A DNA stretch of 63,794 bases, counting the filler. It is 4 parts of 4 records of this genome, joined end to end, with 100 filler letters (N's around TTAATTAATTAA, not from the genome) between each part and the next. Parts side by side here need not be neighbours in the genome. Positions count along the whole stretch, not along the records: positions 1 to 27,975 come from DRR723986_7116; 3 more parts are not named here. One strand, written 5' to 3'. A program made the translations under genes and the position numbers. This document shows, one piece after another, positions 10,160 through 61,446 of this stretch; position 1 is the first letter of the stretch, and each line of letters begins with the position of its first letter. The notes beneath the pieces are model-generated. The model worked only from the letters and a program-made list of their open reading frames with translations. It was not told the origin of the DNA and ran no database searches.

Positions 10160-11343
10160 TCGAAGGTTGGCGCTGGTATGGCGGCTATGACCGCATCTCG
10201 CTTTCTGAAATCGCCCAGACCGGTGCTGTCAGCATCGTCACGGCACTGCACGAAATTCCCTACGGCCAGATCTGGCCTCGCGAAACAATCGCGAACACCA
10301 GGACCCGGCTCCACGCTGCCGGTTTCGACTGGACCGTGGTGGAAAGCCTGCCGGTTCACGAAGCCATCAAGCGCGGGGAAGGCGATCTTTCGGAACTCTT
10401 CGCCAACTACCGGCAATCGATGGCAAACCTGGCCGCTGAAGGCATAAAGGTCATCTGCTACAACTTCATGCCGTTGCTCGACTGGACCCGGACGGACCTG
10501 GCCGCGCCCGTGGCACGTGGCGGTACCTGCCTGCGGTTTTCCGCTGCCAGGATGGCGGCCTTCGAAATCTACATGGTCAAGCGACCCAAGGCGGAAGACG
10601 ATTATTGCGAACAGGTTCTGGTCGAGGCAAAACGCTGGTTTGATGCCGCAAAACAGCCGGACCTCGACCGCTTGACCCAGGCCATCATGGCGGGTCTGCC
10701 CGGGGCCTATGATCGTTACGACCCGAACGGCCTGCGTGAGGCACTGGTGCCCTATCAGGGACTCGACCGGGCGGCACTCAGACAAAACCACAAGCGCTTC
10801 CTGGAGGAAGTGGTCCCGGCGGCCGAAGAGCTTGGCCTGAAACTGGCGGTACATCCGGATGACCCGCCCCGGGATCTGCTCGGTCTTCCGCGGATCGTCT
10901 CGGATGCGGACGACATCGACTGGATCCTGTCGGCGGTGGACAGCCCGTCCAATGGCCTGACGCTGTGCTCGGGCTCACTTGGCGCCAACCCGAAGAACGA
11001 TGTCCCTGCAATCGCGGAACGCTTTGCCGGCAAGATCCATTTCGCCCATCTGCGCAATGTCGCGAAAGATCCGGATGGTTCGTTCGAGGAAGCAGCGCAT
11101 CTTGGCGGCGACACCGACATGCCTGCATTGCTCGGCGTTCTTCTTGGCGAAGAAGCCGGACGGCGACACGAGGGCCGTAAAGATGACGAAATCGTCTTCC
11201 GGCCAGATCATGGCCACGAGCTGCTGAGCGACGCCGACCGCGGTGCGCATCCGGGCTATCCCCTGATCGGGCGAATGCGCGGACTGGCGGAACTGCGCGG
11301 CGTTATCGCAGGTTTGACGGCTCGCCGCGCTGTCCAGGCCTAG
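10156..11343 (+). CDS. uxuA: Mannonate dehydratase
   Basis: WRWYG, VVESLPVHE, CYNFMP.LDWTRT, HPDDPP, RPDHGH, GYPLIGRMRGLAELRG. Confidence 0.95.
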   Translation: MIEGWRWYGGYDRISLSEIAQTGAVSIVTALHEIPYGQIWPRETIANTRTRLHAAGFDWTVVESLPVHEAIKRGEGDLSELFANYRQSMANLAAEGIKVICYNFMPLLDWTRTDLAAPVARGGTCLRFSAARMAAFEIYMVKRPKAEDDYCEQVLVEAKRWFDAAKQPDLDRLTQAIMAGLPGAYDRYDPNGLREALVPYQGLDRAALRQNHKRFLEEVVPAAEELGLKLAVHPDDPPRDLLGLPRIVSDADDIDWILSAVDSPSNGLTLCSGSLGANPKNDVPAIAERFAGKIHFAHLRNVAKDPDGSFEEAAHLGGDTDMPALLGVLLGEEAGRRHEGRKDDEIVFRPDHGHELLSDADRGAHPGYPLIGRMRGLAELRGVIAGLTARRAVQA

Positions 11344-12968
11344 CCGTTACACAGGACATGCCCTCGGACTTCGTCTTCGGGCACGCCCAGCGCCTTCAGA
11401 AGAGACGGATCGATAACGGTTTCGGAGCGGTTCAGCAGATCCTTGTTGGCCCGCCCGATGGCCTTGCGCGTGTTCGGGCCGAGCGACCCGTCCGGAGTAC
11501 CCACGTCGATGCCGCTGTTGTTGAGACCGGCCTGCACCAGCCGCACAAGACCGGCATCATATTCATCGACCTGACCGCAGAACTCCCGGGGCACCTCGGC
11601 AAAGGCGAGGCTTGCCGGGATGCGTTTGAAGGATGTCTCGAACGTTCCCATGTTTTCGGCGAACAGCTCGACAAAATAGAGCAGCGCAACCCGGTGATTG
11701 TACTCCTTCAGCGCCAGACCAACCTCGGTATTGTCGATCCCTGCGGCAATGTTCATCAAGGCCGACGCATCCCGGTCTCGAAACCCCGAAAGCTTGCCGT
11801 TGGCTTCCAGTTTGAACAACGCCACTTGCCCGAAGTCACCGAGCAGACATTTCGAACTGCCATCGCAGACGTAGGACCGCCAGCTGTCGCCATCCGGGCC
11901 CTTCACCCCCAGGCAGACAAAATTCTGCCCGGTGACATAGGTCAGGAAAGTGCGTTCGTTCGATTGCAGATTGGCCAGCAGGTCCTGCGACACGGTGTTG
12001 AAGCGTCCTTGATACAGGCTGGAACAATAGGACAGCATCTGGCTGCGGCTGAGATTTGACAGATCCTGCGGACGTCCAACGACGAAGATCCCTTCAGCAG
12101 CCATTTCCGCCAGCGACAAGTGATACATGGACCCGGGCTTCGTGCCGTACATGTTGCGCATGAAGCCGATGCCGATACCTGTGCTGAGGAAATAGTCCGT
12201 AACCTCGTTGACGCCCCGATTGATCAGCTGAACGACCTGCCCGACCTGCTCCGCGCTGTAGTTGCCCTCAGGAAGCTGGATATAAGGCTGATGAATGCCG
12301 AGACGGGCGGTTTCATGAGCAAAACGGCGAGGAAAGAAGAACCCCTCGTATCGCGTGTAGCCCGCCAGAAAGACCAGGGAACAGGCGGACTCGCAGACGG
12401 CATTTTCCGGCAGCAGCGTGATGAAGTTCTGCTCCGCGATGTATTTGCCGATTTCCAGCGCCTCGCGCAGGTTGCCGCCCGGGCTGTTGAGGGAAATCAC
12501 GTTGTTATAGGGGCAGTAGCCGGGTCTCAGGCAGTCCGAAAAGCCGGTGCGTTCCACAAGAGCCTTCAGGTGATCGAGGTCCCCCTTCTGGATCTGTCCC
12601 TCGATGGAAATGACCTTGCCCGTCTTTAGCCCACCCCAGGCCGGCACGATATGCAGTGTCTCATAGGTATGTGCGCCATCGCCCGCGATGCCGTTTTCGA
12701 AATAAGGCAATGATCCGTCCTTGACGGCGCTCTTCGATGTGAAGCCGTCTTCAACGCCCTTGGCGTGACCGACGGCTTCTGCGCTCACCGTCCCAAGGTC
12801 CAGAAGCTGGTAACCGGCAGCTGCTGCAGGATTGCTGTCGAGAAGACGCATTTCCGCAGCGTGGGCCGCCGAAAAGGCAGGAAAACATACAACCACCGAC
12901 GCAAGCGTCTGTATTACGCTTCGGGCAAAGCCTTTTCCCGCCACCGCCGCTACAGCGTTTCGCAACAT
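11340..12968 (-). CDS. Exported ClpP/crotonase-fold (COG3904-like) protein with C-terminal peptidoglycan-binding domain
   Basis: Signal peptide ending AHA-A; IEGQIQKGD, LNSPGG, CESAC, LGIHQP; C-terminal VQAGLNNSGIDVGTPDGSLGPNTRKAI matches PG_binding_1. Start taken at MLRNAV; the ORF track extends to 13091. Confidence 0.7.
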   Translation of the reverse strand: MLRNAVAAVAGKGFARSVIQTLASVVVCFPAFSAAHAAEMRLLDSNPAAAAGYQLLDLGTVSAEAVGHAKGVEDGFTSKSAVKDGSLPYFENGIAGDGAHTYETLHIVPAWGGLKTGKVISIEGQIQKGDLDHLKALVERTGFSDCLRPGYCPYNNVISLNSPGGNLREALEIGKYIAEQNFITLLPENAVCESACSLVFLAGYTRYEGFFFPRRFAHETARLGIHQPYIQLPEGNYSAEQVGQVVQLINRGVNEVTDYFLSTGIGIGFMRNMYGTKPGSMYHLSLAEMAAEGIFVVGRPQDLSNLSRSQMLSYCSSLYQGRFNTVSQDLLANLQSNERTFLTYVTGQNFVCLGVKGPDGDSWRSYVCDGSSKCLLGDFGQVALFKLEANGKLSGFRDRDASALMNIAAGIDNTEVGLALKEYNHRVALLYFVELFAENMGTFETSFKRIPASLAFAEVPREFCGQVDEYDAGLVRLVQAGLNNSGIDVGTPDGSLGPNTRKAIGRANKDLLNRSETVIDPSLLKALGVPEDEVRGHVLCNG

Positions 12969-13150
12969 GATCAGCCCCTCATTCAATCCAGTTGTCTGCA
13001 ATTTGATTTTGTAAGGCCGCAAATGTGGCAGGGATGATGGGACAGCGTCAAATACCCAACTGACGCAGTGGCCACTTTCATTTTTTGCCAACCGTATGGT
13101 AGAAGCGGATCAATCCGAGAAACGACCACGTAACGGTTCGGGATATTGCC

Positions 13151-13819
13151 ATGAAGCCTTTTGCATTTCTTTTGATTTTTATTTCCCTGGCTCTGCCTGC
13201 CGCGGCGCAAAGCACTATCACGCTTGAGGATTTCGATCTTGGCGGCGACACCAAACCCGCAACTTCCGCCTCGCGTGACGCCAGTGCCCCGGCGGAGACC
13301 GACATGGAAAAATGCCTGCTTGATCAGGCCGCCTGCAGCAACTCGGAATTCAAGTCAAACACCGCCCTCTCGATGGACGATGTAGTGAATCTCAAGCTTG
13401 TCGATCGAGAAGGTGCTGCCTCCACCCCGCCACCAGTCGGCGGCTCTTCGGAAACCGCGTCATCGGCACCACTGCCGACGATCGACATGGAAATCCTGTT
13501 CGACTACAACTCGGCGTCGCTGCGTCCGGACCAGGCCGCGAAGATTACCGAACTCTCGCGCATTCTGAGCCAGGACAAGTTCAAGAACTATCGCTTCCTG
13601 CTGCTTGGCCACACGGATGCAAAGGGCAGCGCACAGTACAATCTTGCCCTCTCGCAACAGCGCGCCCAGACGGTCGCAGGTTTCGTTGCAGCCTGGGGCG
13701 AGCTTTCAGAGCAGCGTGTTCTGGCAAGCGGAATGGGCGCCTCCAGACTGAAGGACCAGAGCGATCCCTACGGCGAACAGAACCGCCGCGTCCAGCTGGT
13801 CCTGCTGCCGGTCAACTGA
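13151..13819 (+). CDS. Exported OmpA-like C-terminal domain (peptidoglycan-binding) protein
   Basis: Signal peptide AAA-Q; ILFDYNSASL, GHTDAKGSAQYNLALSQQRA, QNRRV; no beta-barrel region. Confidence 0.88.
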   Translation: MKPFAFLLIFISLALPAAAQSTITLEDFDLGGDTKPATSASRDASAPAETDMEKCLLDQAACSNSEFKSNTALSMDDVVNLKLVDREGAASTPPPVGGSSETASSAPLPTIDMEILFDYNSASLRPDQAAKITELSRILSQDKFKNYRFLLLGHTDAKGSAQYNLALSQQRAQTVAGFVAAWGELSEQRVLASGMGASRLKDQSDPYGEQNRRVQLVLLPVN

Positions 13820-13966
13820 TCCTCACAAGAGGACCTGCCTACACAGTCGCCTCCCCGACGTCCTCCCGGCCAATCGAAGCGCGGGCTGGACTCGGGGATG
13901 CACAGGCCTTTCGGTCTCAGAGCGCGGGCGCATCTTCGTTGAAAGCGACTCGCCTCTTCTCCTGCG

Positions 13967-15178
13967 TCAGTTGATCTTGAACTCGGCAAAATGATAGGCA
14001 ACCCGTTCCGGGTCGGACCCGATGGTCCCGGACATCTCGTTTTGCGCGAGCTGTCCGTTGATCCGCCTGAGCACTTCCTTCTTCTGCTGATCGGAAAGAG
14101 CGGGTCCCATTGAGCAGAAGAAGCCGATACGGTTCGCCCCCTTCTCGTCCGCTTCTTCCACGACAAGGCCATAGCGCGAGCCGGGCGAGATTTCGTACCG
14201 GATCTTGCCGCCGCCGAGTTCAACCGTCTTGAAGTACGAAGTCGGGATCGGCGTCACCCGGTTTGACGGCGTTATATTAAAGAAATCCGGTGCGCACTGC
14301 TGCGGCACATCCGCCAGAACCGAGACTTCCTCGCCGGCACTGACCGAACCGGGATAGACCGCCAGCAAGGTCTGCTGATCATCTGTCTCCGGAGCGGCTG
14401 CGTTGGTGCGCTTGAAATAGAATTCCGTCTGCATCTGAGACAGCTGCTGCGGCCGCTGCTCGCCGTCGGTTTCGGCCATCACGTCACGCGTCACCCGCTT
14501 CATCAAGACGGAGACTTCCGCATCCGGTGTGGCGACATGGCGGGCTAGCGCCTTGGCGAAAGGCGAGTTCTGTCCGGCACCATCCTTTGCAACGGAATTC
14601 GGCAGGGTGGCGAAAGTGACCAGCATGTCGCCAACCGTGCGGATAGGGGCAAGCCCGCGGGTGATCCCGGCGGACCGCCCGTCGGAGGAGGACTGCGACA
14701 ACAGATGTTCGGCAAAGGGGTTGTTGCGGCAGGCATCAAGGAACAGGAGACTGATCGGCACCTCTTCCATCACCTCCATGAACGAACGCAGACTGACCGT
14801 TTCCCGTTCGATCGAGGTCGCAGATTTCAGTTGAGCATCCACGGGGATCAGAAAGTTCTCACCATCCTTCTGAATGCCATGGCCTGCGAAATAGAGCACC
14901 GCCACATCCAGGTCCGGAGCACGATCGGCAAGATCGTCCAGGACCTTGCCAAGACCGTCCTCATCAAGGTCGAAATGAACCGAAACTTCGAATCCGACCG
15001 CTTCCAGCGACTTGGCGACAAGATCCGCATCCCGTGCCGGGTTTCCGAGCCGGCCGATCTTCTCATAGGCCGAATTACCGATAACAAGCGCAAAGCGGTT
15101 TTCGTCCGCCTGCGCCAGACCGGCGGCCATCAGAAAAAGACAGCAGAACCCCGTCAAAAGCCTGACACATCTCGACAT
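13967..15178 (-). CDS. Exported caspase-family (peptidase C14) protein, orthocaspase/paracaspase-like
   Basis: Signal peptide AQA-D; RFALVIGNSAY, LYFAGHG (catalytic His), LDACRNNP (catalytic Cys), NSPFAKAL, QRP. The ORF track starts at 15238. Confidence 0.9.
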   Translation of the reverse strand: MSRCVRLLTGFCCLFLMAAGLAQADENRFALVIGNSAYEKIGRLGNPARDADLVAKSLEAVGFEVSVHFDLDEDGLGKVLDDLADRAPDLDVAVLYFAGHGIQKDGENFLIPVDAQLKSATSIERETVSLRSFMEVMEEVPISLLFLDACRNNPFAEHLLSQSSSDGRSAGITRGLAPIRTVGDMLVTFATLPNSVAKDGAGQNSPFAKALARHVATPDAEVSVLMKRVTRDVMAETDGEQRPQQLSQMQTEFYFKRTNAAAPETDDQQTLLAVYPGSVSAGEEVSVLADVPQQCAPDFFNITPSNRVTPIPTSYFKTVELGGGKIRYEISPGSRYGLVVEEADEKGANRIGFFCSMGPALSDQQKKEVLRRINGQLAQNEMSGTIGSDPERVAYHFAEFKIN

Positions 15179-15458
15179 TTGACCGCCCGGCACCACTGCA
15201 ACCTCATCCTTAGAAATCATCAATTTGAAATACCTCATGACGCCCTGACAATTGACTCAAGCGACCCTGCGTGATGTTGTCTTGCGAACAGATTGAAACG
15301 CAATAAGGAACGGAGAAGCAACCGGGATTTTACACCGGTGCGTCAGTTGCAACGTCTGCGAGCCTGGAAACAACCGCCCCTCAACCTTTCGCTGCAAACA
15401 CCCGCCAGACCGACCTATTTTATAATTTATCATGCAAGAGTTGGAGAGACTTTCCAGC

Positions 15459-16445
15459 ATGTCGCTTATCCGAACTGTTTTACCCGCCCGCCTTATGCAT
15501 CTGGCGGGTCTTGCCGTCTCCGCCGTCATCGCCCTGCCCCTCCTGACCACTGACGCTTCAGCACAACTCGTTTCATGCGAGAGCATTCAGAAGGACTGGC
15601 TTGCGATGCCGCTGAGCGCCGGTCACGAAGTCCGCGTCAGAATCTACGACCAGGCCTTCAATGACAGCGATTGCGACGGCATGGTGGTGGAAGGCTTCGG
15701 CAAGGAAATCATCGATGCCCGGCTCGACGTCATCGCGCCGTTTCAGGATCTTGAAGGCTATACCGGCAACCTTGAAACCCTGAAACAGGACCTGGCCGAC
15801 CTTCAGGAATTCGGCAGCCACTGGCGTATTTCCTATCTGCTCGGCGAAATTCTGCGCAAGCAGCAGCAAACCCTGCCCGCGTTCCGCGCCTATCAGGAAG
15901 CCCTTGGCCTGGTGGATGACACCGAGCTGACCCCTGCGGAACCGGCACATGCCATGATCGCCCGGCTGCGCGACCGCCTGGATGAACTGGCGGTGGTCGT
16001 TGCCCAGATTTCAGAGGAACCGGGAGACATCAAGATTCCGGTCACCCGCAGCGGACAGTCGATCTCGCAATACAGCTTTTCCACGCGCGGCTACAAACGC
16101 AAGAAGACCCTGGTTCCGATCCAGTTCGTCTACGATCAGGATGTCATGACCAAAGCCGGCCGAACCAGCTTTGAAGACGTGCAGGAAGCTCTGGAAAAGC
16201 AGGGCTCCCCGGACATCCAAGTCGTCGGCCACACCGATCCGGTCGGCTCTGATGCCTACAACATGCAACTGTCCATGAAGCGTGCCGAGGCCGTACGTAG
16301 CGCCTTGCTGGCAGCCGGATACTCCGGCTCCATCGAGGTGCTTGGCATGGGTGAAAGCCAGCCGTTCCAGTTCGACGATCCATCCCTCTACACCGAGGAC
16401 GTGCGCAATCAGGCGCACCGACGTGTTGAATTCGTCCAGAAATAG
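15459..16445 (+). CDS. Exported protein with a helical (TPR-like) N-domain and an OmpA-like C-domain
   Basis: GGAGAG RBS; signal peptide ASA-Q; WRISYLLGEILRKQ...AFRAYQEAL is TPR-like; GHTDPVGSDAYNMQLSMKRAEAV and HRRVEF. Confidence 0.82.
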   Translation: MSLIRTVLPARLMHLAGLAVSAVIALPLLTTDASAQLVSCESIQKDWLAMPLSAGHEVRVRIYDQAFNDSDCDGMVVEGFGKEIIDARLDVIAPFQDLEGYTGNLETLKQDLADLQEFGSHWRISYLLGEILRKQQQTLPAFRAYQEALGLVDDTELTPAEPAHAMIARLRDRLDELAVVVAQISEEPGDIKIPVTRSGQSISQYSFSTRGYKRKKTLVPIQFVYDQDVMTKAGRTSFEDVQEALEKQGSPDIQVVGHTDPVGSDAYNMQLSMKRAEAVRSALLAAGYSGSIEVLGMGESQPFQFDDPSLYTEDVRNQAHRRVEFVQK

Positions 16446-16455
16446 GCCGGCCCGC

Positions 16456-18060
16456 ATGACCAGATCCATTCTGCCGGCCTCCGCGGCTTTCCTGAAAAAG
16501 CGGGTGCCGGGATTTGCCCCTGCCCTCGTGCTTGCAGCAGGCCTTGCCGCGCCGCTTCCCGCATTTGCCGGCAATCTCTACGGCCTCGTCATCGGCATTG
16601 ACGACTATCAGCACATCACCGACCTCAAGGGCGCTGTCAATGACGCGAGAGATGTTGCCGGAACACTGGAAAAGCTGGAGGCCAGCAAGGTCATTCTGCT
16701 GACCGATGCCGAAGCCACGCGGGACAAAGTCTTTGCCTCGTGGCGGGAGCTGACGGAACTTGCCGGCCCGGGGGATACGCTGGTGTTTCATTATGCAGGT
16801 CACGGTGCCCGGCAGGAAGCGATCCTTCCCGGGCACGAAGAACTCGACAACATGTTCCTGCTGGCGGGCTTCGACGAAACCGGCCCGGGTGTCAACGAGC
16901 GTATCATCGACAACGAGGTCGGCCATCTGCTGGCCGAAGAAAAGGAAGCAACCGTCGTCTTCGTCGCCGACAGCTGTTTTGCAGGCGATATGGCCCGGGC
17001 GGCCGATTTCCGCGCCGAAGTAAATGTGCGCGTAGCCGATGTTCGGGTCGACAAATCCTCTGACAGGATCGCCGACCGGGTGAGGCAACTTGGCGAAGTT
17101 GAGGAAGATGCACTTCAAAATGTCATCTGGCTTTATGCCCAGGACCGCAACAAGGTCACCCAGGAAGTGCGGATCGGCGAAGAGCTGCGCGGTGCGCTCT
17201 CCTATGCCTTTTCCCGCGCTCTTGAGGGTGAAGCGGACGGTGACAGCGACAGCGTTTTGAACACGGCCGAACTGAAGCGTTACGTCAACAGCTCGGTCAA
17301 GCACCATACCGAACGGCGGCAACGGCCGGAAGTCAATGCCGGATCCAGGGACCTGGAAATCCTGCTGCATGATGCTGCCGGCACGCCTGCCCCGAGCGCC
17401 GGACTACCGGAACTGACGCTCTACGCCGCCCCCGGCGAGACAATTCCAGCCCTGTCAGGCATCCGCAAGGTCGACAGCAAGGCTGAGGCCGATCTGATTT
17501 ATGACGGCGACGGTTCTTCACTGGTCTACAAGACCGGTGACGTGATCGCCTCGTTTCCCGCCCCGCCTTCCGCCGAGGCCCTGCAGGCGACCGTCGACAA
17601 ATGGCGCTTCCTTGCCTTCCTGATCGGCTTTGCCGAAACTGAAGGTCCGGAACTGGACCTCTCCGACGGCAGCCGGACCTATATCGAAGGTGAGCAGGTG
17701 ACATTCTCGATCCGCTCGTCCGGCAACGAAAATGTGGTCCTGTTCAACCTCGCTTCAAACGGGGCAGTTCAACTGGTCGGCCCCGTTCGCAGAGGCAAGC
17801 GCGGCCTGGCTGCCGGCAAGCTCCGGCCTGGCCGGACGGACAGCTTCCGATCCGCGGTGATCCCGCCTTTCGGCGCCGACCATCTCATCGCCATCACCAC
17901 ACCGTCCCCCATGCCCGATCTCGTGGATGCGGTTCAGGACGCACAACAATACAACGATCTCGCCGCCCTGGCCAAGGAAATCGGCCACACGCTCGACGGC
18001 CAGTCCTTCGGCCTGGACTGGGTCGGGCTTTATACGCGCGCAAAGGGAGACCTTCAGTGA
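16456..18060 (+). CDS. Exported metacaspase-like C14 peptidase with C-terminal DUF4384-like domain
   Basis: Signal peptide AFA-G; GLVIGIDDY, LKGAVNDA, FHYAGHG, ADSCFAG; ADGDSDSVLNTAEL loop; tail TYIEGEQVTF...VLFNLASNGAVQL...PPFGADHLIAIT. Confidence 0.85.
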   Translation: MTRSILPASAAFLKKRVPGFAPALVLAAGLAAPLPAFAGNLYGLVIGIDDYQHITDLKGAVNDARDVAGTLEKLEASKVILLTDAEATRDKVFASWRELTELAGPGDTLVFHYAGHGARQEAILPGHEELDNMFLLAGFDETGPGVNERIIDNEVGHLLAEEKEATVVFVADSCFAGDMARAADFRAEVNVRVADVRVDKSSDRIADRVRQLGEVEEDALQNVIWLYAQDRNKVTQEVRIGEELRGALSYAFSRALEGEADGDSDSVLNTAELKRYVNSSVKHHTERRQRPEVNAGSRDLEILLHDAAGTPAPSAGLPELTLYAAPGETIPALSGIRKVDSKAEADLIYDGDGSSLVYKTGDVIASFPAPPSAEALQATVDKWRFLAFLIGFAETEGPELDLSDGSRTYIEGEQVTFSIRSSGNENVVLFNLASNGAVQLVGPVRRGKRGLAAGKLRPGRTDSFRSAVIPPFGADHLIAITTPSPMPDLVDAVQDAQQYNDLAALAKEIGHTLDGQSFGLDWVGLYTRAKGDLQ

Positions 18061-19502
18061 AAACAGGATACCTCAAGGCCTTCGCGGCAACCATGTGCCT
18101 GTGCCTGTCCGCCGGCACGGTTCACGCCGCGCAAAAGGCATTGCTGATCGGCGCCGGTGTCTACCCTTATCTGGAACCGGACGCGCAGCTTTCAGGCCCT
18201 GCGAACGACGTGCGCCAGATGGCGGATTTCCTCAAGGGCGACTGGGGCTTTGCATCTTCCGATGTCCGCATCCTGGTGGAAGAAGGCGCGGCCAAGAACA
18301 ACATTCTGGGTTCCATCACCGGTTGGCTCGCCAGTGAAACGCGGCCGGGTGACCGCGTCATCATTTATTATTCCGGTCACGGCTCCCAGGTTCCCGATCG
18401 CAATGGCGACGAAGAGGACGGCCTCGATGAAACCTTCGTCCCGACCGATTACGGCCGCAGGGGTGCAAGGGCCGAGGATATGCTCACCGACGACGAGATC
18501 GCCTCCGCGCTGTCCACGCTGAAGGGCCGCGAAGTGATCCTGATCGCCGATTCCTGTCATTCAGGTACGGTCAACCGCGATGTCGTGCCGGATCTTGTTT
18601 CCAAGGGTCTTGATGCGAAAGCGCGCTACCTGCCGTTCTCGGGCGTTTCCAGGTCCCTGCCGGTGGTACGTGACGAAGAGCCTCTGGCACGCGAAACCAA
18701 CGTGCACTTGACCCTGTCCGCTGCGCTGCCGCACCAGCTGGCCTGGGAAACCAACGGCTCGGGCATCTTTACCCAGAACCTGATCCGGGGTCTACGCACG
18801 CGCGAGGCCGACCTCAACGGCAATGGCCGTGTCACCACCGCGGAACTTCTGAACTATCTGCGTCCGCGGACCGAACAATGGTGCCAGCGCGTGAAGGATT
18901 GCCGTGATCTGCAGTTCACGCCCAACATGTCACCGCGCAACGAAGCCTTCATTCTGCAACCGGCTTCGGCCGAAGGCCCTGTCCAGACGGTAACCGGGAA
19001 TACGGCCGACGATGTTTCCGACGTACTTCCGGAACAATCCTCGCAGGAAATCAAGGTCTCCATCCTGCCCGGCTCCGTACACCAGATCGGTGACGAGGTG
19101 CAATTCCAGCTCACCAGCGCGGTCGATGGCTACCTGACCCTTTTCGACCTGACCGTCGAAGACGATCTGGTGCTTCTGTTCCCGACCGATGAGGATCGCT
19201 CCGCCGGCAAGACCGGCCGCATCCGTGCCAACTCCGCGCTCACGGTTCCCGACCCGTCCTACGGCTTCAGCTTCGAGGCAGAGGCACCGGCGGGCAAGGG
19301 CAAGCTGCTGGCGATCGTGACCGAGGATCCGGTGGATCTGGAAAACCTTCTTGCTGCCAACGGCGAATTCGAGCCGATTGGCGACAAGATCGATTTCATG
19401 AAGGAACTTTCCGGCCGCCTCAACAAGGTCTGGACCGCGGACAACGCCAATCGCAGCGCCCGTTGGGCGGCCGGTTATCAGGATTATGAAATCCGGCAGT
19501 AA
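18057..19502 (+). CDS. Exported metacaspase-like C14 peptidase with C-terminal DUF4384-like domain
   Basis: Signal peptide VHA-A; KALLIG, LSGPANDV, YYSGHGSQVPDRNGDEEDGLDE, ADSCHSGT; ADLNGNGRVTTAEL; tail IGDEVQF...DGYLTLFD...LLFP...PAGKGKLLAIVT; GTGA overlap with the upstream gene. Confidence 0.9.
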   Translation: MKTGYLKAFAATMCLCLSAGTVHAAQKALLIGAGVYPYLEPDAQLSGPANDVRQMADFLKGDWGFASSDVRILVEEGAAKNNILGSITGWLASETRPGDRVIIYYSGHGSQVPDRNGDEEDGLDETFVPTDYGRRGARAEDMLTDDEIASALSTLKGREVILIADSCHSGTVNRDVVPDLVSKGLDAKARYLPFSGVSRSLPVVRDEEPLARETNVHLTLSAALPHQLAWETNGSGIFTQNLIRGLRTREADLNGNGRVTTAELLNYLRPRTEQWCQRVKDCRDLQFTPNMSPRNEAFILQPASAEGPVQTVTGNTADDVSDVLPEQSSQEIKVSILPGSVHQIGDEVQFQLTSAVDGYLTLFDLTVEDDLVLLFPTDEDRSAGKTGRIRANSALTVPDPSYGFSFEAEAPAGKGKLLAIVTEDPVDLENLLAANGEFEPIGDKIDFMKELSGRLNKVWTADNANRSARWAAGYQDYEIRQ

Positions 19503-19636
19503 TCCCTTGCAGGCTTGCTCAAGCAGGCCTCACACTTCAACTTCAAGCATCGCAAACGGGCCCTTTCCCGGACCTCGTTTGGTCAAGATCATCGGGGCGG
19601 CCCGGCGCCCGCTTCATACAGCAGTCGACGGTACCC

Positions 19637-21079
19637 ATGTTGCTCAAATCCATCGTTTTCTGTCTTTCTCTGGTTTTCGCGGTTCCGCAGCTTTCCGCCG
19701 CCGAGATCACACAGCGTCCCGATCTCGCACCGCGATTGGCACAATTGAAACCGTTGTATCCGGGCAAACGGTCTGCCGGCAGCGTGGTCAATGAACTGCA
19801 GGGAACGATATTCCTGATTTCCGGTGTCATCGAAAAAGGCGATCTGGAAAAGCTGAAGGCTGCTCTCGACGGCACGTGGGGCAAATACATCGTCTTCGAC
19901 AGCCCCGGCGGCAGCTTTCTGGAAGGCATCCGCATCGGCCAGTATCTGCAATACAACGTCGGCTCGCAGGACCCGGATCTCAACGGTGTCTTCGTTCTCA
20001 ACGGTAACGAGTGCCTGTCCGCCTGCGCGCTCGCCTTCACCCTGGCAGCTACCCCGCGCAACGCTGTTTATGGCGGCGATATCCGCTTTCTGGAAGCTGG
20101 CGCGGCACTCGGGTATCACATGGCGTTCCTGCCGGAGGAGAAGGCCAACCAGCTTGTTGCGGTCAAGGAAGCCATGAACCTGGCCTACGAAGTGACGCAG
20201 ACCTACGTCAAGCTGATCAAGGGCGGCATTGCCCCGTCCATTCTGCTGCAGGAGGCGCTGTCCCACCGTACTGCCGACAGCTTCTTTTATCTGGCTGGCG
20301 GCATTCGGTCCTATGCGATGGGCCTGACGCCGGTTTCTGCCGGCACTATTGCCGACCCGATCAACAAGAGCGCCCTTTACATGGACACGGTTGGCGCCAT
20401 GTGCACGCAGCTTTTCCAGGCCGACAATTCAATCAGGAAATCTGAAGTCGAATATGAATTCGGCGCAATTGACGGATCTGGTCCGAACCCGCAGGAAACC
20501 AAGCTGGAAGATCTGATCCAGCAGCTGGGGTCACGCCGTATCGCCGCAAGCCACAATGGCGTTGCTTATTGCACGGTCGAACTTTCCGAAGACGGCACCG
20601 TCGGCATGCGCATCACCTCCGGTTCGCTACCCTGTGCGAAGGGCGGGTATGACGCCCCCACATGGTGCGCAATGCCGGGGCCCTTCGACGATACCCTGCC
20701 GAAAGTGACCAACGCGCTGCTTGCCGACGCAGCCAGTTGCCACGGCGGCAGGCTGACGACCGAATATGCCTACTGGACGAGCGATGTCATCGACTACGAC
20801 ATCGGCGAGGAAACACCGACAGCTCTGACGGACTGGAATTCGTGGGAGCGCACCATCGCGCGGGACGTCAACGTTCGCCAGAACCCGTCTCTCGACGCGG
20901 CAGCCGTTGGCCGGGTGCAGACCGGCGACAAGGTCAAGATTTCCGATTGCCGTATCGTCTCGGGGCCGCAAGGTGTCTGGTATCAACTGTCCACCGGCGG
21001 CTGGATCAGTGCCCGCTTCGTTTCCGAATTCGACCAGTTCACCCGTCCGGCAACAGAAGAAACCATGATAGGCCGATAA
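19637..21079 (+). CDS. Exported ClpP/crotonase-fold (COG3904-like) protein with C-terminal bacterial SH3 domain
   Basis: Signal peptide LSA-A; ISGVIEKGD, FDSPGG, CLSAC, LGYH; C-terminal VNVRQNPSLDAAAVGRVQTGDKV...WYQL...GWISARFV matches SH3b. Confidence 0.72.
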   Translation: MLLKSIVFCLSLVFAVPQLSAAEITQRPDLAPRLAQLKPLYPGKRSAGSVVNELQGTIFLISGVIEKGDLEKLKAALDGTWGKYIVFDSPGGSFLEGIRIGQYLQYNVGSQDPDLNGVFVLNGNECLSACALAFTLAATPRNAVYGGDIRFLEAGAALGYHMAFLPEEKANQLVAVKEAMNLAYEVTQTYVKLIKGGIAPSILLQEALSHRTADSFFYLAGGIRSYAMGLTPVSAGTIADPINKSALYMDTVGAMCTQLFQADNSIRKSEVEYEFGAIDGSGPNPQETKLEDLIQQLGSRRIAASHNGVAYCTVELSEDGTVGMRITSGSLPCAKGGYDAPTWCAMPGPFDDTLPKVTNALLADAASCHGGRLTTEYAYWTSDVIDYDIGEETPTALTDWNSWERTIARDVNVRQNPSLDAAAVGRVQTGDKVKISDCRIVSGPQGVWYQLSTGGWISARFVSEFDQFTRPATEETMIGR

Positions 21080-55865: not shown

Positions 55866-56570
55866 TCAGCCCCTCTCGTCGATCTGACGGGACAGGATGG
55901 CGGAGAACTCGTCCGCAAAGCCTTCCATGCGCGAAACCGCCTTGCCGACGTCGGCCGAAAACTTGTTGTAGGCGATAACAGCCGGAATGGCGGCCAGTAG
56001 ACCAAGCGCGGTCGCAAACAGCGCTTCGGCAATACCGGGCGCTACGACGGCAAGGTTGGTGCTTTCCGATGCCGCGATCGCCTGGAACGCCGTCATGATG
56101 CCCCAGACCGTTCCGAACAGACCGATGAACGGTGCCGCGGAGCCAACGGTTGCGAGGATCAGCAGCCGGCTTTCAAGCCGCTCGGCTTCTCGCTGGATGG
56201 TGACATCCATCACCCTGTCGATACGCTGCTGCAGGCTGCCGATGGCAGGCCGAGCGCCCTCGTGGCTGCGCTTCCATTCACGCATGGCCGCGACGAACAG
56301 TGCCGCCATCGAATGGTTCACACGATTGTGAAGCGTATTATAGAGTTCTTCGAGAGACTGACCGGACCAGAACACCGTTTCGAACCGGCTCATCTGGCGC
56401 CGTGTCCGGCCGACCAGCATGATCTTGTCGACGATGATCGCCCAGCACCACACCGAAGCGCCCAAAAGGCCGAGCATTACGACCTTGACGACGATATGCG
56501 CCTGCCAGAACAGCGCAAAAAACGAAATGCCGCTCTCTGGCGCCAATGTCGATTGGACAAGTGTTTCCAT
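55866..56570 (-). CDS. tolQ: TolQ
   Basis: LATVGSAAPFIGLFGTVWGIM, VVAPGIAEALFATALGLLAAIPAVIAYN. Confidence 0.96.
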   Translation of the reverse strand: METLVQSTLAPESGISFFALFWQAHIVVKVVMLGLLGASVWCWAIIVDKIMLVGRTRRQMSRFETVFWSGQSLEELYNTLHNRVNHSMAALFVAAMREWKRSHEGARPAIGSLQQRIDRVMDVTIQREAERLESRLLILATVGSAAPFIGLFGTVWGIMTAFQAIAASESTNLAVVAPGIAEALFATALGLLAAIPAVIAYNKFSADVGKAVSRMEGFADEFSAILSRQIDERG

Positions 56571-56835
56571 AAATTCAATGACCCCTTGGCCGTCTGACGC
56601 TGTTTTGCATTCAAGGTTTCGAAAACGACAGCGAGGAACCGGAATCAGCCGGCCGGCTCTTGTAACCTGCCGCCTCTCTGACGTTTGATTTTGTCAAAAC
56701 TGGGACTTTTCCAATCAAAGAAAGTCCCTCTCTAAAGGAATCAATTAAGGTTACTGCAAGATTAACGCAGTAATGGGTTTTGAAAGTATTTTACCGCCGC
56801 CAAGCAGCTTGCCTGCTCATTCAGAGCCAAACCCT

Positions 56836-57303
56836 TCAACCGTCGGTGTTTTCTCCAGGTGCATGCTGCACGAGTTTTTCCGAAAGGACCTGCGGCAGTC
56901 GGGTCGGACGTCCCTGCGAGGTGATGATCGCAACGGTGACGGCAGCCGAAATCAGCAACTCTTCGCCGCGGTAAATCAGCTGATCGAGCCGGATTCGGGC
57001 GCCTTTGTACTCCGCAAGGCTGGTATGAACTTCCAGCACATCGTCAATCCTGGCCGGTTTCTGGAAGTCCAGCGTCATTGTCTTGACTGCGAAGGCCAGC
57101 GAAGCACCGTGGGTACCTTCGGCCATCTCACGATGGTGAATTCCGATGAGACGGAGGAAATCCGACCTGGCGCGCTCGAAGAAGCGCACATAGGCACCGT
57201 GATAAACGATGCCTGTGAAATCCGTGTCCTCGTAGTAGACGCGAACAGGAAGCACATGACCGCCATCTTCCAGGCGGCCGGCGAGATCCGGCCAGTCCGA
57301 CAC
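56836..57303 (-). CDS. ybgC: Tol-pal-associated acyl-CoA thioesterase
   Basis: VRVYYEDTDFTGIVYH..Y.RFFERAR; PARIDD; upstream of tolQ. Confidence 0.92.
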   Translation of the reverse strand: MSDWPDLAGRLEDGGHVLPVRVYYEDTDFTGIVYHGAYVRFFERARSDFLRLIGIHHREMAEGTHGASLAFAVKTMTLDFQKPARIDDVLEVHTSLAEYKGARIRLDQLIYRGEELLISAAVTVAIITSQGRPTRLPQVLSEKLVQHAPGENTDG

Positions 57304-57387
57304 GCTTTGTCCCTCGAAAGCTGAATGAAAAAGCCCCCCGGTCGACCGACCGGGAGGCTCGTACCTGGCCCTTACGTAGGCCGTATC

Positions 57388-57862
57388 TTATGCAGCGGCA
57401 ACCTCGGAGAGGAATTTCTCGACGGACGCACGAAGCTGTTCCGCCTGCTGTTTCATCTCGATCGTCGCGTTCAGCATGTCGCCAACCGCTTCCGAGTTTT
57501 CGGCAACGCCTTCGTTCAGCGACGCCACAGTCTCCGCAACGCTGCGGGTACCTTCCGCGGCTTCTGCAACGTTTCTGGAAATCTCACCGGTGGCAGCGCC
57601 CTGCTGCTGCACGGCGTCCGAAATCGTGGTGGTGTAGGAGTTGACCTCCTCGACCGATTCCGACACCCGGGCAATCTCTTCCACCGCTTCGGTGGTGGAG
57701 GCCTGGATAGCCGCGATCTGCGCGGAGATTTCTTCCGTTGCCTTGGCAGTCTGGCCGGCGAGCGACTTGACCTCGGAGGCAACGACCGCAAAGCCCTTGC
57801 CGGCATCGCCCGCACGCGCAGCTTCGATCGTCGCGTTCAGCGCCAGCAGGTTGGTCTGTTCG
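57388..57862 (-). CDS. Methyl-accepting chemotaxis protein, 3' fragment
   Basis: [38 protein letters not shown]...[13 protein letters not shown]; cut by the linker. Confidence 0.9.
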
Positions 57863-57962
57863 NNNNNNNNNNNNNNNNNNNNNNNNNNNNNNNNNNNNNN
57901 NNNNNNTTAATTAATTAANNNNNNNNNNNNNNNNNNNNNNNNNNNNNNNNNNNNNNNNNNNN
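57863..57962. other. Artificial contig linker
   Basis: Ns flanking TTAATTAATTAA. Confidence 0.98.
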
Positions 57963-58001
57963 GAGACCGTCTCCAGGGTTCGAATCCCTGTCTGTCCGCC
58001 A
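57963..58001 (+). tRNA. 3' part of a tRNA, probably tRNA-Ser (long variable arm); likely island attachment site
   Basis: GAGACCGTCTC-CAGGG-TTCGAAT-CCCTG-TCTGTCC-G-CCA: T-arm, G discriminator and encoded CCA. The anticodon is not visible. Confidence 0.75.
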
Positions 58002-59385
58002 CTTGGGAACAAAAGCGGGAACTGGTGAGGTGACCGCGTCACCGCTCAAGATGGCCCGTTCCAATAGCGATTTGCGCCCCACTATCGTGATTTGATCAAC
58101 ACCCACTCTGATTTCATCGATGATCGCCCGAAGGAAACCCCGCTTTCCGGCAACTGACGGTTGCGCCAACGCCTCCTGCATACCGGAAACAAATGCTGAT
58201 ACCTTCTGGTGACTTACGCGAGCATCTGGAGTGAGTTCAGTCTCGACCTGATCTCGTTCTCTTTGAGCTCGCTGGTGATGTTCCTTCGCCGTCAGGAAAC
58301 GTTGTTTGAAGTCTTCTTCAGGAAGATCAACCAGCCCGTGCCGGATCATGTCGTACATGGCGTCGAGGTCTTTCTTGGCAGCCTGTACTTCGCCATCACG
58401 GGCAACCAGCCGCTCCGCTTGATCCTCCTTGGCCTTCTCCTGGCGGGTGCGCAAAGGGTCAAGCAACGCATTCATTTCTTCGGAGGTAATAAGACATTCT
58501 CGCACATGCTGAAGTACCAGTTTGTCGAGCGCCCCCATTGGGACTCGGTGACCTCGTGCCAGTACGCATTTCACTGGAGCAGGATTAGTAACGATACCTA
58601 CCACTTTTTGCGGTTTGAGTGGTCATTCCATTCCCGCAATGAGGACAAGTAACAAGTCCCGTCAATAAGACATCGCCTGTTACGATCCTCGGAGGTGTCC
58701 TCTTCGGATTTTTTGCATCAAGGAAATCACGCAGCCGCGGGAACTCGTCTGCAGAAACGATGGCTGGGACCTGCAGCGGAATCTCGACACCCTCGTTTTC
58801 ACCACTTCGAAATGTGAACTTGCCCGTGTAGGTTCGATCAGTGAGATGGCGGTGAATACCGCTCACTCTCCATTTTTTGCCCCTTCTGGTACGATATCCT
58901 CTTTCATTCAGCCAACAGACGATTGCCTTGATGCCCATAGGGCCGGAAGCCCGGTCTCCTTTGAGGGCAAGATCGAACATAAGTCGCACCACTGTTGCAT
59001 CATGCTCGTCAATCGTCAGACTTTTCTTCCGGGTTTTGCCGCGCCGTTCGATTTCCACGAGTTTGTATCCGAACGGTGTGACACCACCGTTCCAGAATCC
59101 TTGCAGGGCATTTTCGTGGAGGCTGCGCCTGACAGGTTTTGCCGTCTTGAGTGATTGGTATTCATCGACCATGGCCTAAAATCCCGGCCGCTTGTCGGTG
59201 GTGCCGCTCTTGGCGTCTTTAAACTCTTCAACGATGTTATACGCGTTATGTTTGCAATGTGCCCTGAGCTGCTTGCGCTGATCCGGAATGGACAGGTCCT
59301 TCTGGGCCTGCTTGCCTGTCGAAACTCACAGATAAATGACGGCGCGGCTGCCTGATGGGGCGGCAAATTGATTTTGCACGGCAAA
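57963..59385 (-). pseudogene. Large serine recombinase (integrase) pseudogene
   Basis: RAVIYL*VSTGKQ (TGA 59326-59328), KRPGF*AM (TAG 59176-59178), deleted mid-catalytic domain, GFWNGG.TPFGY, Y.G, LLTGLVTCPHCG..M, YRY* then a frameshift, coiled coil, ending VPKWRTDRDSNP antisense to the tRNA. Confidence 0.85.
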
Positions 59386-59421
59386 ACCTTTCGATGAAAT
59401 CGCAGTCGAGGCGAAGAATGT

Positions 59422-59988
59422 GTGCGGGATATCTACGACCTACTATATGTTGGCCTTGCCAAGGTCGGAGACAGTTTTGATAGACTTATCAAAAATGGGC
59501 ACAAGGCCCGAATGGAAATTCTCAGCAACGAGCCGCAGAGATATCCTGGCGCGCGTGTGTCAGGTGAAATTTATCTGTTTCTATTTAGCGTTCAGCCACT
59601 CATTATGACCACATTTGACCCCGAGCATGACTTTGAAAACGAAAAATTTTTTGAAGCGTATGATCAGAAACGCACTGTTGCTGACGCGGAGAAGGCATTC
59701 GTTAGCCTGCTAAAGCCCGAATACAATGTTATCAAGTTTGCCAAGTATCCCAAGGGCGCTGATGGGCTCTACGGTTCAGATTACGCTCGTTATGGCTATG
59801 CAATCTGCGAAAGCCTGTCTTTTAGTACTGTTTACGGAACAATCAAAGGCAGCCGAGATGTCGACACAGGATTTATCACAAACGATGCCGACAGCATTTT
59901 CCTGGAAGGGGAGGCTGTAAAGCTATTTGTCTCTGGTGCCGATTATCTAGGTGAGCCGCCTTGGACGGGTCCGGACATGGATCCATAA
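59422..59988 (+). CDS. GIY-YIG-like nuclease domain protein, probably 5'-truncated island cargo
   Basis: LLYVGLA...DRL...H...DAEKAFVSLLKPEYN resembles GIY-YIG motifs; weak start, directly adjoining the recombinase. Confidence 0.5.
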   Translation: MRDIYDLLYVGLAKVGDSFDRLIKNGHKARMEILSNEPQRYPGARVSGEIYLFLFSVQPLIMTTFDPEHDFENEKFFEAYDQKRTVADAEKAFVSLLKPEYNVIKFAKYPKGADGLYGSDYARYGYAICESLSFSTVYGTIKGSRDVDTGFITNDADSIFLEGEAVKLFVSGADYLGEPPWTGPDMDP

Positions 59989-60269
59989 AGGAAAAAGCGA
60001 GATAGAAACGGGAAAGGCAATGATTTTCTATGGTTCTAGAGGCGTTGTTTGGGGGCGCAAATCCGTGCACTCGGACTGAGCCAGCAGGTGTTTGATTGTG
60101 CGATTTAACCAAATCTATTTCTTCCCGTTTGAACGCCCATGAACCACATAAAGCCAGGCCTTGTCGACGGCGTTAACAGCCTGCTTTCGGCTCACTCCAA
60201 TCTTTTCTCGTGCAATCCCAATGATCTCCTTTCTGGGAAAGGTGTTTTCGCCGACCACCGGATCAGTGG

Positions 60270-60700
60270 CAAAGTTGCGTTCAACTTCAGCCTGAGCCAT
60301 TCGCATCGCACGATCAGAGAACGGCATTGTGTCCTATTGTCGGGTTTCTAACTGATGTTCAATTTCCTCCCGCATTCCAGGCAATCGTAATTCGTGCAAG
60401 AGATCAGAGAGTTGTGTATTTGCCATAATTGCGTTTCTTACGATTGAACTTCAGAATGTCGGAGAAGTATTGGCGACCACGAACGTTGCCGAAGGGCATC
60501 AGGGCTTCGGTCTCAGAGGATTCATCTGGTGAGAATGTCTGCAAACCAGCGTTGATAATTTCCTCAACTTTTCTCGGATTTAGGATGCCTAATATCACAG
60601 TCTTTTGGCACGCAGCGTCGACATCATCGGCTGCGTGCTGGTTAGCAAGCTGTATCAATTTTGTTGCGGCATTGGCGGTCTCGCTTGGTTTTTATGTCTC
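60270..60700 (-). mobile_element. IS21-family remnant (istA 3' end and istB 5' end)
   Basis: VDAACQK...GNVRGRQYF (IstA C-terminal motif), then MANTQLSDLLHELRLPGMREEIEHQLETRQ*DTMPFSDR...AEVER (IstB N-terminus with a stop). Confidence 0.65.
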
Positions 60701-60716
60701 CTGAAATGGTTGGATA

Positions 60717-61430
60717 TCAGTTGAATGGCGTTGTCCCCAACCTCGCGTACGGCTGCCTTCGCTCCCTCAAGACGCAACAACGATGCCTGCTGATGATTAC
60801 CCTCGCTTGATGATCAACCATTGCAATACTTTGGACGGAAACGGACAAACGATCCATCATTGCGCCAGAGCCGTCCTTTCGTTGGTTGTTTCGTTGGCAC
60901 TTTAAGCCCCTGACGTCGCCATATCGGCCGAACTGGCGCGTCAGCTCGATCATATCTGCGATCAGGCGTTCTTCGTCAGCACGCCCGCACGGTAGCCGTC
61001 TCTACGTTGACCGGTGCTGGCCCAACACGTGGCACACACGACGCTCGTAAACCTTCATCTTGCAGCCACATGATCAATGCAGGCCCGCCTACGTGAAGGG
61101 CTCAGAAGTTTTCCGATGCGGCCTCCTTCAAGATCAACTTGTCCAAAATCAGGTCAGAAACCTCATGCCTAACGCGCTCGTTGTCTTTCTGTAGCCGCTT
61201 CAGTTCCTTGAGTTGTTTCGTGCCCATTTCGCTATACTTCTTCTTCCAACGGTAAAAGGTATGTTCAGTCACGCTGATTTGACGGATAACATCGATCCTG
61301 GGCATGCCTTACCGCATCAGAACTTCAACCTGCCGTAACTTTACAAGAATCCCTTCCGGCTTGGGCCTCTTCATCGCCATCTTTGATCCTCTGATTTCCT
61401 AATCATAGGCGCGGGGGGGGATGGGTGCCA
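60717..61430 (-). mobile_element. IS3-family (IS407 group) remnant
   Basis: OrfA MAMKRPKPE..KLRQVEVL..*..VTEHTFYRWKKKY...KELKRLQKDN...LDKLILKEAA; OrfB start SPSRRRACI...ERRVC.VLGQHRST...ADMIELTRQFGRYG, then truncated. Confidence 0.8.
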
Positions 61431-61446
61431 GTTTCCTGGTTAGAAT

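Follow-up and report, generated by a model that had tools for sequence, protein, structure and literature searches.

Two Separately Conserved Modules of Predicted Exported Caspase-like and ClpP-like Proteins in a Marine Roseibium

Introduction

What would caspase-like peptidases do at a bacterial cell wall, and with which partners? The question is raised by a locus in the DNA of a marine Roseibium close to R. aggregatum: positions 11340-21079 of the window (the whole stretch of DNA analysed, 63,794 nucleotides long) hold seven open reading frames (ORFs), here g1 to g7, for C14 (caspase-like) peptidases, OmpA-domain proteins and ClpP-like proteins. To our knowledge, almost no bacterial caspase homologue has a known substrate or role, though such proteins are widespread, and those that have been studied are cytoplasmic; the orthocaspase MaOC1, for example, was reportedly studied together with a toxin-antitoxin module and is presumed to be cytoplasmic.

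The first-pass annotation of this DNA had read the seven genes as one exported protease system bookended by its two ClpP-like genes. The order and orientation that it gave are borne out, all seven ORFs being found at these positions; the single system and the bookends are not. Loci gathered from other genomes resolve the genes into two separately conserved modules, module A (g1, g2, g3 and g7) and module B (g4-g5-g6): the ClpP-like genes belong with g2 and g3, and module B, probably a single operon, is placed between g3 and g7 of module A. We regard it as evenly balanced whether these modules form a set of tethered endopeptidases on adaptor or targeting domains, comprising a caspase pair and ATP-independent ClpP-like partners, with an accessory role in envelope conflict or surveillance.

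The seven ORFs are the following:

g1: 11340..12968, minus strand; ClpP-like protein, predicted to be exported, with a PG_binding_1-like tail; 542 amino acids; module A
g2: 13151..13819, plus strand; small OmpA-domain protein, predicted to be exported; 222 amino acids; module A
g3: 13967..15178, minus strand; C14 caspase-like peptidase with an unnamed C-terminal domain of about 150 amino acids; 403 amino acids from the ATG at 15178; module A
g4: 15459..16445, plus strand; all-helical N-terminal domain and OmpA-like domain; 328 amino acids, with an alternative start at 15432; module B
g5: 16456..18060, plus strand; C14 peptidase with DUF4384; 534 amino acids; module B
g6: 18057..19502, plus strand; C14 peptidase with DUF4384; 481 amino acids; module B
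g7: 19637..21079, plus strand; ClpP-fold protein with a Cys-rich middle and an SH3b tail; 480 amino acids; module A

The length of g1 is counted from the ATG at 12968, the longest ORF extending to 13091. The genes g1 and g2 point away from each other, g2 and g3 converge, g3 and g4 again diverge, and g4 to g7 run in one direction, with a gap of 10 bases between g4 and g5 and an overlap of 4 bases between g5 and g6.

Two Conserved Modules

Co-occurrence in other genomes, on which the first-pass annotation had staked its reading, is found for each module among marine and soil Alphaproteobacteria and, like the domains, the fold and the conserved residues described below, is directly supported. The module-B survey covered 79 loci with 10-kb flanks, fetched with an alignment of g4 relatives; a C14 gene lies within 10 kb in 17 of the 18 loci with the g4 N-terminal domain, against 1 of the 61 with the OmpA domain only. 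The collinear order g4-g5-g6 recurs in Roseibium, two Boseongicola metagenome-assembled genomes (MAGs), two Cohaesibacter MAGs, a Rhodobacteraceae MAG, a Hyphomicrobiales MAG and a MAG labelled Gammaproteobacteria, and a rearranged order, with a protein of about 800 amino acids between g6 and g4 (g5-g6-insert-g4), is found in Bauldia, Hyphomicrobiaceae and related MAGs. Full-length g4 relatives come from Roseibium, Rhodobacterales, Cohaesibacter and other Hyphomicrobiales.

For module A, loci were fetched with an 11-row g7 alignment, which gave 43 further loci with a full-length g7-like gene and 30 with its N-terminal domain only. A C14 or g3-type gene lies near 25 of the 43 (13 with a g3 relative of at least 45% identity, 9 with the g3 C-terminal domain only and 3 with another C14 gene), against a C14 gene near 3 of the 30, and a full-length g2 relative (38-56% identity) adjoins the g7-like gene in 18 of the 43. 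In a Hyphomicrobiales MAG (L147), relatives of g2, g7 and g3 stand side by side with a full-length relative of g1 (50%). A reading of the ClpP-like genes as additions confined to Roseibium was overturned by these loci gathered outward from g7; its apparent basis was that ClpP-like genes occur in 3 of the 18 module-B loci, with paralogues elsewhere. The two modules are also found together, no more than 10 kb apart, in Sulfitobacter (L136) and Roseobacter (L138), and an uncultured Roseibium (L024) carries g4-g5-g6 and a g3-like gene without g1, g2 or g7.

The Caspase Pair and Its Putative Anchor

The two peptidases of module B both pair a C14 domain with DUF4384 above the Pfam cut-offs: g5 at 63.3 bits for C14 (cut-off 21.4, E 3.5e-17) and 29.8 bits for DUF4384 (cut-off 27), g6 at 84.6 bits (cut-off 21.4, E 1.1e-23) and 57.7 bits (cut-off 27, E 1.2e-15). 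Their His and Cys motifs, HYAGHG and ADSC in g5 and YYSGHG and ADSC in g6, follow the GHG plus D[AS]C scheme and align with those of relatives; together with g3 (below), they bear out the earlier count of three C14 peptidases with intact His/Cys dyads. Among relatives, all 15 of the g5 type keep His and Cys, and 3 of the 15 of the g6 type (L032, L033 and L037) have lost both, the window's own g6 being intact. Counterparts of g5 and of g6 are 44-66% identical across genera, and g5 and g6 only 24-27% identical to each other; judged by these identities, the two are old paralogues.

The putative anchor of the pair is g4, whose OmpA domain reaches 55.9 bits (Pfam cut-off 27.2, E 5.5e-15). Its AlphaFold2 model, with a mean predicted local distance difference test (pLDDT) score of 87.5, consists of a seven-helix bundle (helices at residues 40-191) followed by an OmpA-like domain that resembles the structures of OmpA-C, Pal and YfiB (Foldseek E 4e-7; VIA Z 11.4, root-mean-square deviation 2.7 over 115 residues); g2 being likewise above its cut-off, both of the OmpA-like domain proteins first reported are upheld. 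The Asp and Arg of the GHTD...R motif of OmpA-like domains bind diaminopimelate; in g4 they are D260 and R275, invariant among 13 relatives. The predicted complex of mature g4 and mature g5 has a median score of 0.31 against a mark of 0.34, which speaks neither for nor against binding.

Between the helical and OmpA-like domains of g4, at residues of about 197-215 (window 16050-16110), lies a conserved basic linker, VTRSG..ISQYSFSTRGYKRKK, where a peptidase specific for Arg or Lys could conceivably cut. EF-hand-like loops follow the catalytic domains of g5 (DGDSDSVLNTAE, about 17200-17260) and g6 (DLNGNGRVTTAE, about 18800-18860); the Pfam model EF-hand_1 matches g6 at no better than E 0.0023, under its cut-off, and the Gly, Ala and Glu that flank the loop are invariant in 15 g5 relatives. 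Such loops may place the caspases under calcium control.

Several further proteins keep company with module B elsewhere. In the soil-type variant of the module, the insert of about 800 amino acids, predicted to be exported, lies between the pseudo-caspase and the OmpA anchor (L032:7431-9728, L033:7443-9971, L034:6681-9761); two CxxCH haem motifs are present in 3 of the 4 copies checked, and the one copy scanned (L033) matches DUF4384. In a predicted metagenome protein of 431 amino acids (P0182), a g4-like part (49% identity over 263 residues) runs directly into the N-terminus of a g6-like caspase (60% over 157 residues); the protein is either a natural fusion from which g5 was lost or an artefact of assembly or gene calling. 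In Rhodobacterales and Cohaesibacter loci, a protein of about 200 amino acids, with no signal peptide and no Pfam family, is encoded just upstream of g4, in the following regions:

L026:1230-2217
L027:8957-9944
L028:8626-9941
L030:8892-9974
L031:8896-9546

Both copies inspected share the motif IAEFFFLLK, and the protein might be a regulator. It is followed in 4 of the 5 loci by a protein of about 125 amino acids, of which the one copy inspected (L030) has a signal-peptide-like leader; the window has neither protein upstream of g4.

The ClpP-like Module

The first-pass annotation counted two wall-binding proteins of ClpP fold, and it is for g7 that both parts of this description hold. The AlphaFold2 model of g7 (pLDDT 89.1, predicted template modelling score 0.89) has ClpP structures alone as its top Foldseek matches (E 2e-6 to 7e-6, template modelling score on the target 0.51-0.67), and hhalign pairs g7 with an alignment of 15 ClpP sequences from the same order as the host at E 5.4e-5 over 127 columns (probability 66%), with S128 and H161 placed on the invariant Ser and His of ClpP. 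On this model, the ClpP fold is the right assignment for g7. In a conservation set of g7 and 42 full-length relatives, G91, G92, C126, S128, C130 and H161 are invariant, S89 and P90 nearly so; eight Cys are invariant among close relatives. The tail matches SH3_3 at 36.8 bits (Pfam cut-off 27, E 4.5e-9), and a profile search of structures with g7 connects this tail to the SH3b domain of lysozyme 4krt (E 3.9e-7) but, beyond the tail, reaches nothing except ClpP at E 0.34. Neither g7 nor g1 yielded a useful match when its sequence was searched against the PDB.

For g1, the same fold is inferred from its paralogy with g7 (N-terminal domains at BLASTP E 3e-11, 29% identity) and from a weak hhalign match to ClpP (E 0.0018, probability 15%) that sets its SPGG, CESAC and GIHQP motifs on the ClpP Ser and His. 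Because they are only 29% identical, g1 and g7 are not recent tandem copies. The g1 tail reaches PG_binding_1 at 20.1-22 bits, just under the Pfam cut-off of 23, and resembles the C-terminal part of the HxsA model (E 1.2e-5; 25 bits, where 122 would be required); none of the seven proteins scores above the cut-off of an NCBIfam model. The ClpP-like N-terminal domain, perhaps that of COG3904, recurs in 312 proteins at E<=0.001, 40 of them at E<=1e-30, among 1.84 billion representatives. The family is expanded in Roseibium: the nearest genome (G001) has 6 matches to it, with tails that include SH3_3 and PAN. A third predicted exported ClpP-like gene (about 480 amino acids, minus strand) lies between g6 and g7 in three Roseibium loci, that of R. 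aggregatum IAM 12614 (L011:8296-10000) among them; in the window, the gap is only 135 bases (19503-19636) and holds no remnant detectable by blastn.

The remaining partners are g2, with an OmpA domain at 61.5 bits (Pfam cut-off 27.2, E 1e-16) and the GHTD...R motif, and g3, with Peptidase_C14 at 122.5 bits (cut-off 21.4, E 2.9e-35) and His and Cys motifs (YFAGHG and LDAC) intact here and in 7 of 7 g3-like relatives. The C-terminal domain of g3, in which two Cys are invariant, has no Pfam match at E<=1 and no detectable relation to DUF4384, hhalign giving a probability of 0.3% against the g5 alignment. In Mameliella, Maliponia and Antarctobacter, proteins sharing only this C-terminal domain are predicted to be exported and carry a trypsin-like domain on the same g3 tail: Trypsin_2 is matched at E 6e-19 and 4e-17 in the two scanned with Pfam, and the His, Asp and Ser motifs of trypsin are present in all five sequences inspected.

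Predicted Export and Wall Tethering

Signal peptides were judged by an in-house heuristic: a plausible start codon had to be followed by a basic n-region, then a hydrophobic core, then a site of AxA type. By this measure, all seven proteins have the signal-peptide-like N-terminus first ascribed to them, with predicted cleavage at AFSAAHA|AE in g1, MKPFAFLLIFISLALPAAA|QS in g2, AAGLAQA|DE in g3, PLPAFA|GN in g5, AGTVHA|AQ in g6 and VPQLSA|AE in g7; in six related loci, such leaders recur on nearly all of the core and accessory proteins checked. Invariant Cys occur in even numbers among relatives of g4, of g7 and of the g3 C-terminal domain, and such pairs make an oxidising compartment plausible. 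The proteins of both modules are thus, on sequence features, very probably extracytoplasmic and tethered to the wall.

Distribution, Flanks and Expression

Both modules appear, from the genomes searched, to be rare, patchy and accessory. Orthologues of g7 are present in 2 of 25 same-genus genomes, a third having a weak match only; at class level, the g7 profile is found in 1 of 401 genomes and the profile of the g4 N-terminal domain in 3 of 401. The neighbours in relatives are a changing set that includes WD40-C14 giants, a TPR-CHAT giant, a D-Ala-D-Ala dipeptidase and C14 proteins with SH3, PAN or F5/8-type tails; Cohaesibacter loci add a trypsin, a serpin, a DUF4384-only protein and a small OmpA protein, and the Rhodobacteraceae MAG a papain-DUF4384 protein and Trypsin_2.

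In the window, the locus lies between hexuronate genes upstream (UxaC, TRAP transporter, KduI, UxuA) and sulphur-related genes downstream (two Sulf_transp, DsbD_TM, cytochrome c). In six genomes of the genus, each with an orthologous uxuA, all seven genes are missing within 14 kb of it; since the downstream flank is also absent within that distance, no empty insertion site can be defined. A tRNA scan found no tRNA gene in the whole window. At 56000-62000, G+C drops from about 0.60 to 0.50-0.55 and the G+C at third codon positions of ORFs falls to 0.48-0.59; this part may be foreign DNA.

Public sequencing runs from 11 studies contain the stretch. In two RNA libraries of one study, contigs span 13137-15252 (g2 and g3) and 15326-19497 or 15300-20339 (g4 to g6); the contig breaks match the divergent intergenic regions, a weak hint at transcription units, with g4-g6 as one transcript. 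Two promoters had been placed in these regions by the first-pass annotation: the divergent gene orientation stands, and a consensus promoter and terminator scan was uninformative, with 2 promoter-like sites against 2.4 expected. In RNA runs X5 and X16, the contigs over the locus are 29 and 76 kb long and uninformative on transcription, and contig depth cannot rank the genes. All covering RNA contigs have one base fewer than the window at two intergenic positions, 16447 (four runs, between g4 and g5) and 19601 (three runs, between g6 and g7), reflecting either a strain difference or an assembly error in the window.

Comparison with Known Systems

Neither module is described in the literature searched; supplementary tables may list such operons. 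The portions available of two genomic papers on polymorphic toxins and conflict systems (PMC3482391, PMC7159879) do not contain this arrangement. In the available part of their survey, Asplund-Samuelsson et al. (2012, PMC3501461) report 46 metacaspases with N-terminal helices, possibly signal peptides, OmpA in 14 metacaspase operons, multi-metacaspase operons in Alphaproteobacteria and peptidoglycan-binding fusions; the first-pass statement that the characterised bacterial caspases are cytoplasmic has to be read beside this, exported C14 proteins and caspase-OmpA operons being already present in that survey. A later metagenome survey (Asplund-Samuelsson et al. 2016, PMC4933709) places Labrenzia (now Roseibium), in the part available, among the ten most metacaspase-rich genera and speculates on extracellular protein degradation by bacterial metacaspases. 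Like the orthocaspases or bacterial metacaspases (MEROPS C14), g3, g5 and g6 have Peptidase_C14 with a His-Cys dyad; the portions consulted of the two surveys define no g4-g5-g6 triad and no ClpP-like/OmpA/protease module, and test no function.

Comparable to the pseudo-orthocaspases (Klemencic et al. 2019, PMC6426788, seen in part), the g6 counterparts of L032, L033 and L037 lack both His and Cys. The pseudo-orthocaspases of that account have Tyr and Ser replacements and a suggested role in photosynthesis, whereas the dead g6-type copy is the predicted exported partner of an active paralogue. According to the available part of Kato et al. (bioRxiv 10.1101/2022.08.17.504292), fusions of DUF4384 with protease domains are common, and the Craspase of type III-E CRISPR systems (Csx29 and Csx30) likewise links a caspase-fold protease to DUF4384; in contrast to the present locus, which has no CRISPR genes, Craspase is cytoplasmic and RNA-guided, and its protease is of the CHAT and not the C14 type.

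In comparison with ClpP (S14), g7 shares the fold, an SPGG-type motif and Ser and His at the catalytic positions. Unlike ClpP, g1 and g7 are predicted to be exported, to a periplasm where an ATPase partner would be implausible, and they add about 290 residues that carry an SH3b or PG-binding tail and, in the g7 type, eight invariant Cys. The g7-type fold is presumably also akin to wider ClpP/crotonase-fold peptidases such as SppA (S49). The C-terminal domain of g4 superposes on YfiB, Pal and OmpA-like anchors and keeps their GHTD...R motif invariant; unlike YfiB and Pal, g4 has no lipobox and adds a helical N-terminal domain of about 180 residues that belongs to no Pfam family and is found almost only beside C14-DUF4384 genes. 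The HXS anti-phage system (bioRxiv 10.64898/2026.01.06.697848), in the part of the preprint available, shows that a periplasmic effector can be anchored to the wall through a domain that binds peptidoglycan; the likeness of g1 to it is at the domain level, the locus has no radical-SAM genes and no His-Xaa-Ser repeats, and the logic of the HXS effector is DNA binding and not proteolysis.

No link to known defence systems, defence being one of the roles first suggested, was found in PADLOC scans of the locus and of the flanks of 10 related loci. Against PADLOC-DB 2.0, matches of the seven proteins are at the domain level, to ZorB models in their OmpA-like part and to a generic 'caspase' model, with no ZorA-like partner among the ORFs of the locus, and the 8 of 107 flanking proteins with a match at E<=1e-10 are all of generic ATPase or hydrolase type. 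As first noted, no sensor kinase or other kinase, NLR-type or pore-forming gene lies near the locus among the window genes.

Proposed Mechanism and Alternatives

We infer export, tethering, pairing, order of action and role, and they can be combined into the following scheme. In module B, the OmpA-like domain would fix g4 to the sacculus and the helical-repeat N-terminal domain would serve as a docking surface, and g5 and g6 would act as a pair, g6 having turned into a dead partner in some lineages. Module A would combine an endopeptidase bearing a constant C-terminal targeting domain (a caspase here, a trypsin-like enzyme elsewhere) with a small OmpA protein and ClpP-fold proteins. At the wall, the endopeptidases, of which the caspases may be gated by calcium, would cleave envelope or incoming proteins in a limited way; C14 enzymes of this type cleave after Arg or Lys. 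The ClpP-like proteins would then trim or degrade the cut products. An accessory role in envelope conflict or surveillance, not housekeeping, is proposed because the modules are rare and patchy, have swappable parts and occur in relatives with other exported proteases and a serpin; as no linkage to defence genes was found, the defence reading rests on rarity, modularity and the serpin. The proteolytic cascade, in which one protease would activate another, and the envelope-damage sensing of the first-pass annotation are likewise conjectural.

Several points weigh against this scheme. It is a computational scheme; the signal-peptide calls are heuristic, and among the window genes none is recognisable as a substrate, a sensor or a transcription regulator. 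None of the known defence models fits, and the flanks of the 10 related loci hold no consistent defence genes. The Pfam model CLP_protease is unreached, the g1 domain scoring 13.6 bits against 20.2 (E 0.061) and the g7 domain giving no match; the equivalent of the ClpP Asp falls outside the g7 hhalign stretch and is apparently missing from the g1 sequence, the nearly invariant D214 of g7 being a candidate triad Asp by motif likeness only. The resemblance of the g4 N-terminal domain to TPR proteins is at Z 6-7, below the safe Z for helical proteins. The loci counted are kin: module-B loci include four from Roseibium, two from Boseongicola and two from Cohaesibacter, and module-A loci are not independent, with several from Mameliella and Antarctobacter. 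Eighteen of the 43 g7-like loci have no caspase or g3-type neighbour, and four other ClpP-like paralogues of the nearest genome (L015-L018) stand in unrelated contexts (Mla/Mce, vWA of YfbK-like type, AcrB/FtsK); because of these paralogues, the ClpP-like family as a whole is not tied to caspases.

The same wall-binding features could instead reflect envelope housekeeping, in which the proteases would act on resident proteins of the periplasm, outer membrane or wall, maturing or recycling them, for instance during growth, division or stationary phase, and the OmpA, SH3b and PG-binding domains merely place them at the sacculus. Every protein has a wall-binding or export feature, locus L141 holds a D-Ala-D-Ala dipeptidase (Peptidase_M15) and a GH3 enzyme, both from wall-turnover families, contigs of RNA libraries from cultures of a close relative cover the locus, and defence linkage is lacking, all of which suit such a role. 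Housekeeping genes are, however, seldom so rare (1 of 401 and 3 of 401 genomes at class level, 2 of 25 in the genus), and neither the swap of catalytic class on a constant tail, nor the serpin and extra proteases of relatives, nor the strain-level gain and loss of the third ClpP-like gene, typical of fast-changing accessory systems, would be expected of them. We hold this explanation to be unlikely.

Nutrient scavenging, by which exported proteases would break down proteins and peptides from the surroundings at the cell surface so that the cell could take them up, is distinctly improbable: several protease classes stand side by side in marine heterotrophs, and the survey that ranks Labrenzia as metacaspase-rich speculates, in the part available, on extracellular degradation (PMC4933709), but peptidoglycan anchors would keep the enzymes beneath the outer membrane, no linked peptide transporter or outer-membrane channel is found in the window, and a dead caspase partner and a serpin point to regulated, limited proteolysis and not to bulk digestion. 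That the seven genes form no system and came together by chance or local duplication among many paralogues is highly improbable, for even though Roseibium is metacaspase-rich (PMC4933709, seen in part), four of the six ClpP-like matches of the nearest genome stand in unrelated contexts and the locus sits at a synteny break, the same partners recur in conserved order across families and orders at the frequencies given above, g1 and g7 have diverged widely, and orthologues of g5 and g6 are closer across genera than the two paralogues are to each other.

Implications

The proposed set of tethered endopeptidases would give exported bacterial caspases partners that can be named and that recur across genomes: an anchor whose docking domain is its own, a pair of one active and one inactive caspase, and a targeting domain on which either a caspase or a trypsin-like enzyme can sit. 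Its ClpP-fold proteins would have to work without ATP, and the family to which they belong, with about 312 representative clusters, is itself uncharacterised and probably made up of serine peptidases of the periplasm. A culturable, non-pathogenic host and RNA libraries that contain the locus make the substrates and purpose of exported bacterial caspases directly testable.

A bolder extension, unlikely enough to be offered as a conjecture, is that the modules represent a mobile, modular family of peptidoglycan-tethered extracytoplasmic protease cascades in marine and soil Alphaproteobacteria, with an interchangeable catalytic class, a caspase/pseudo-caspase pair on a helical-repeat-OmpA adaptor and ATP-independent ClpP-fold chambers that finish the digestion, standing guard against phage entry proteins, predatory bacteria and injected effectors. 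If true, such cascades, together with the serpins of some relatives, would parallel in bacteria the extracellular protease cascades of animal immunity, which are likewise under the control of inhibitors.

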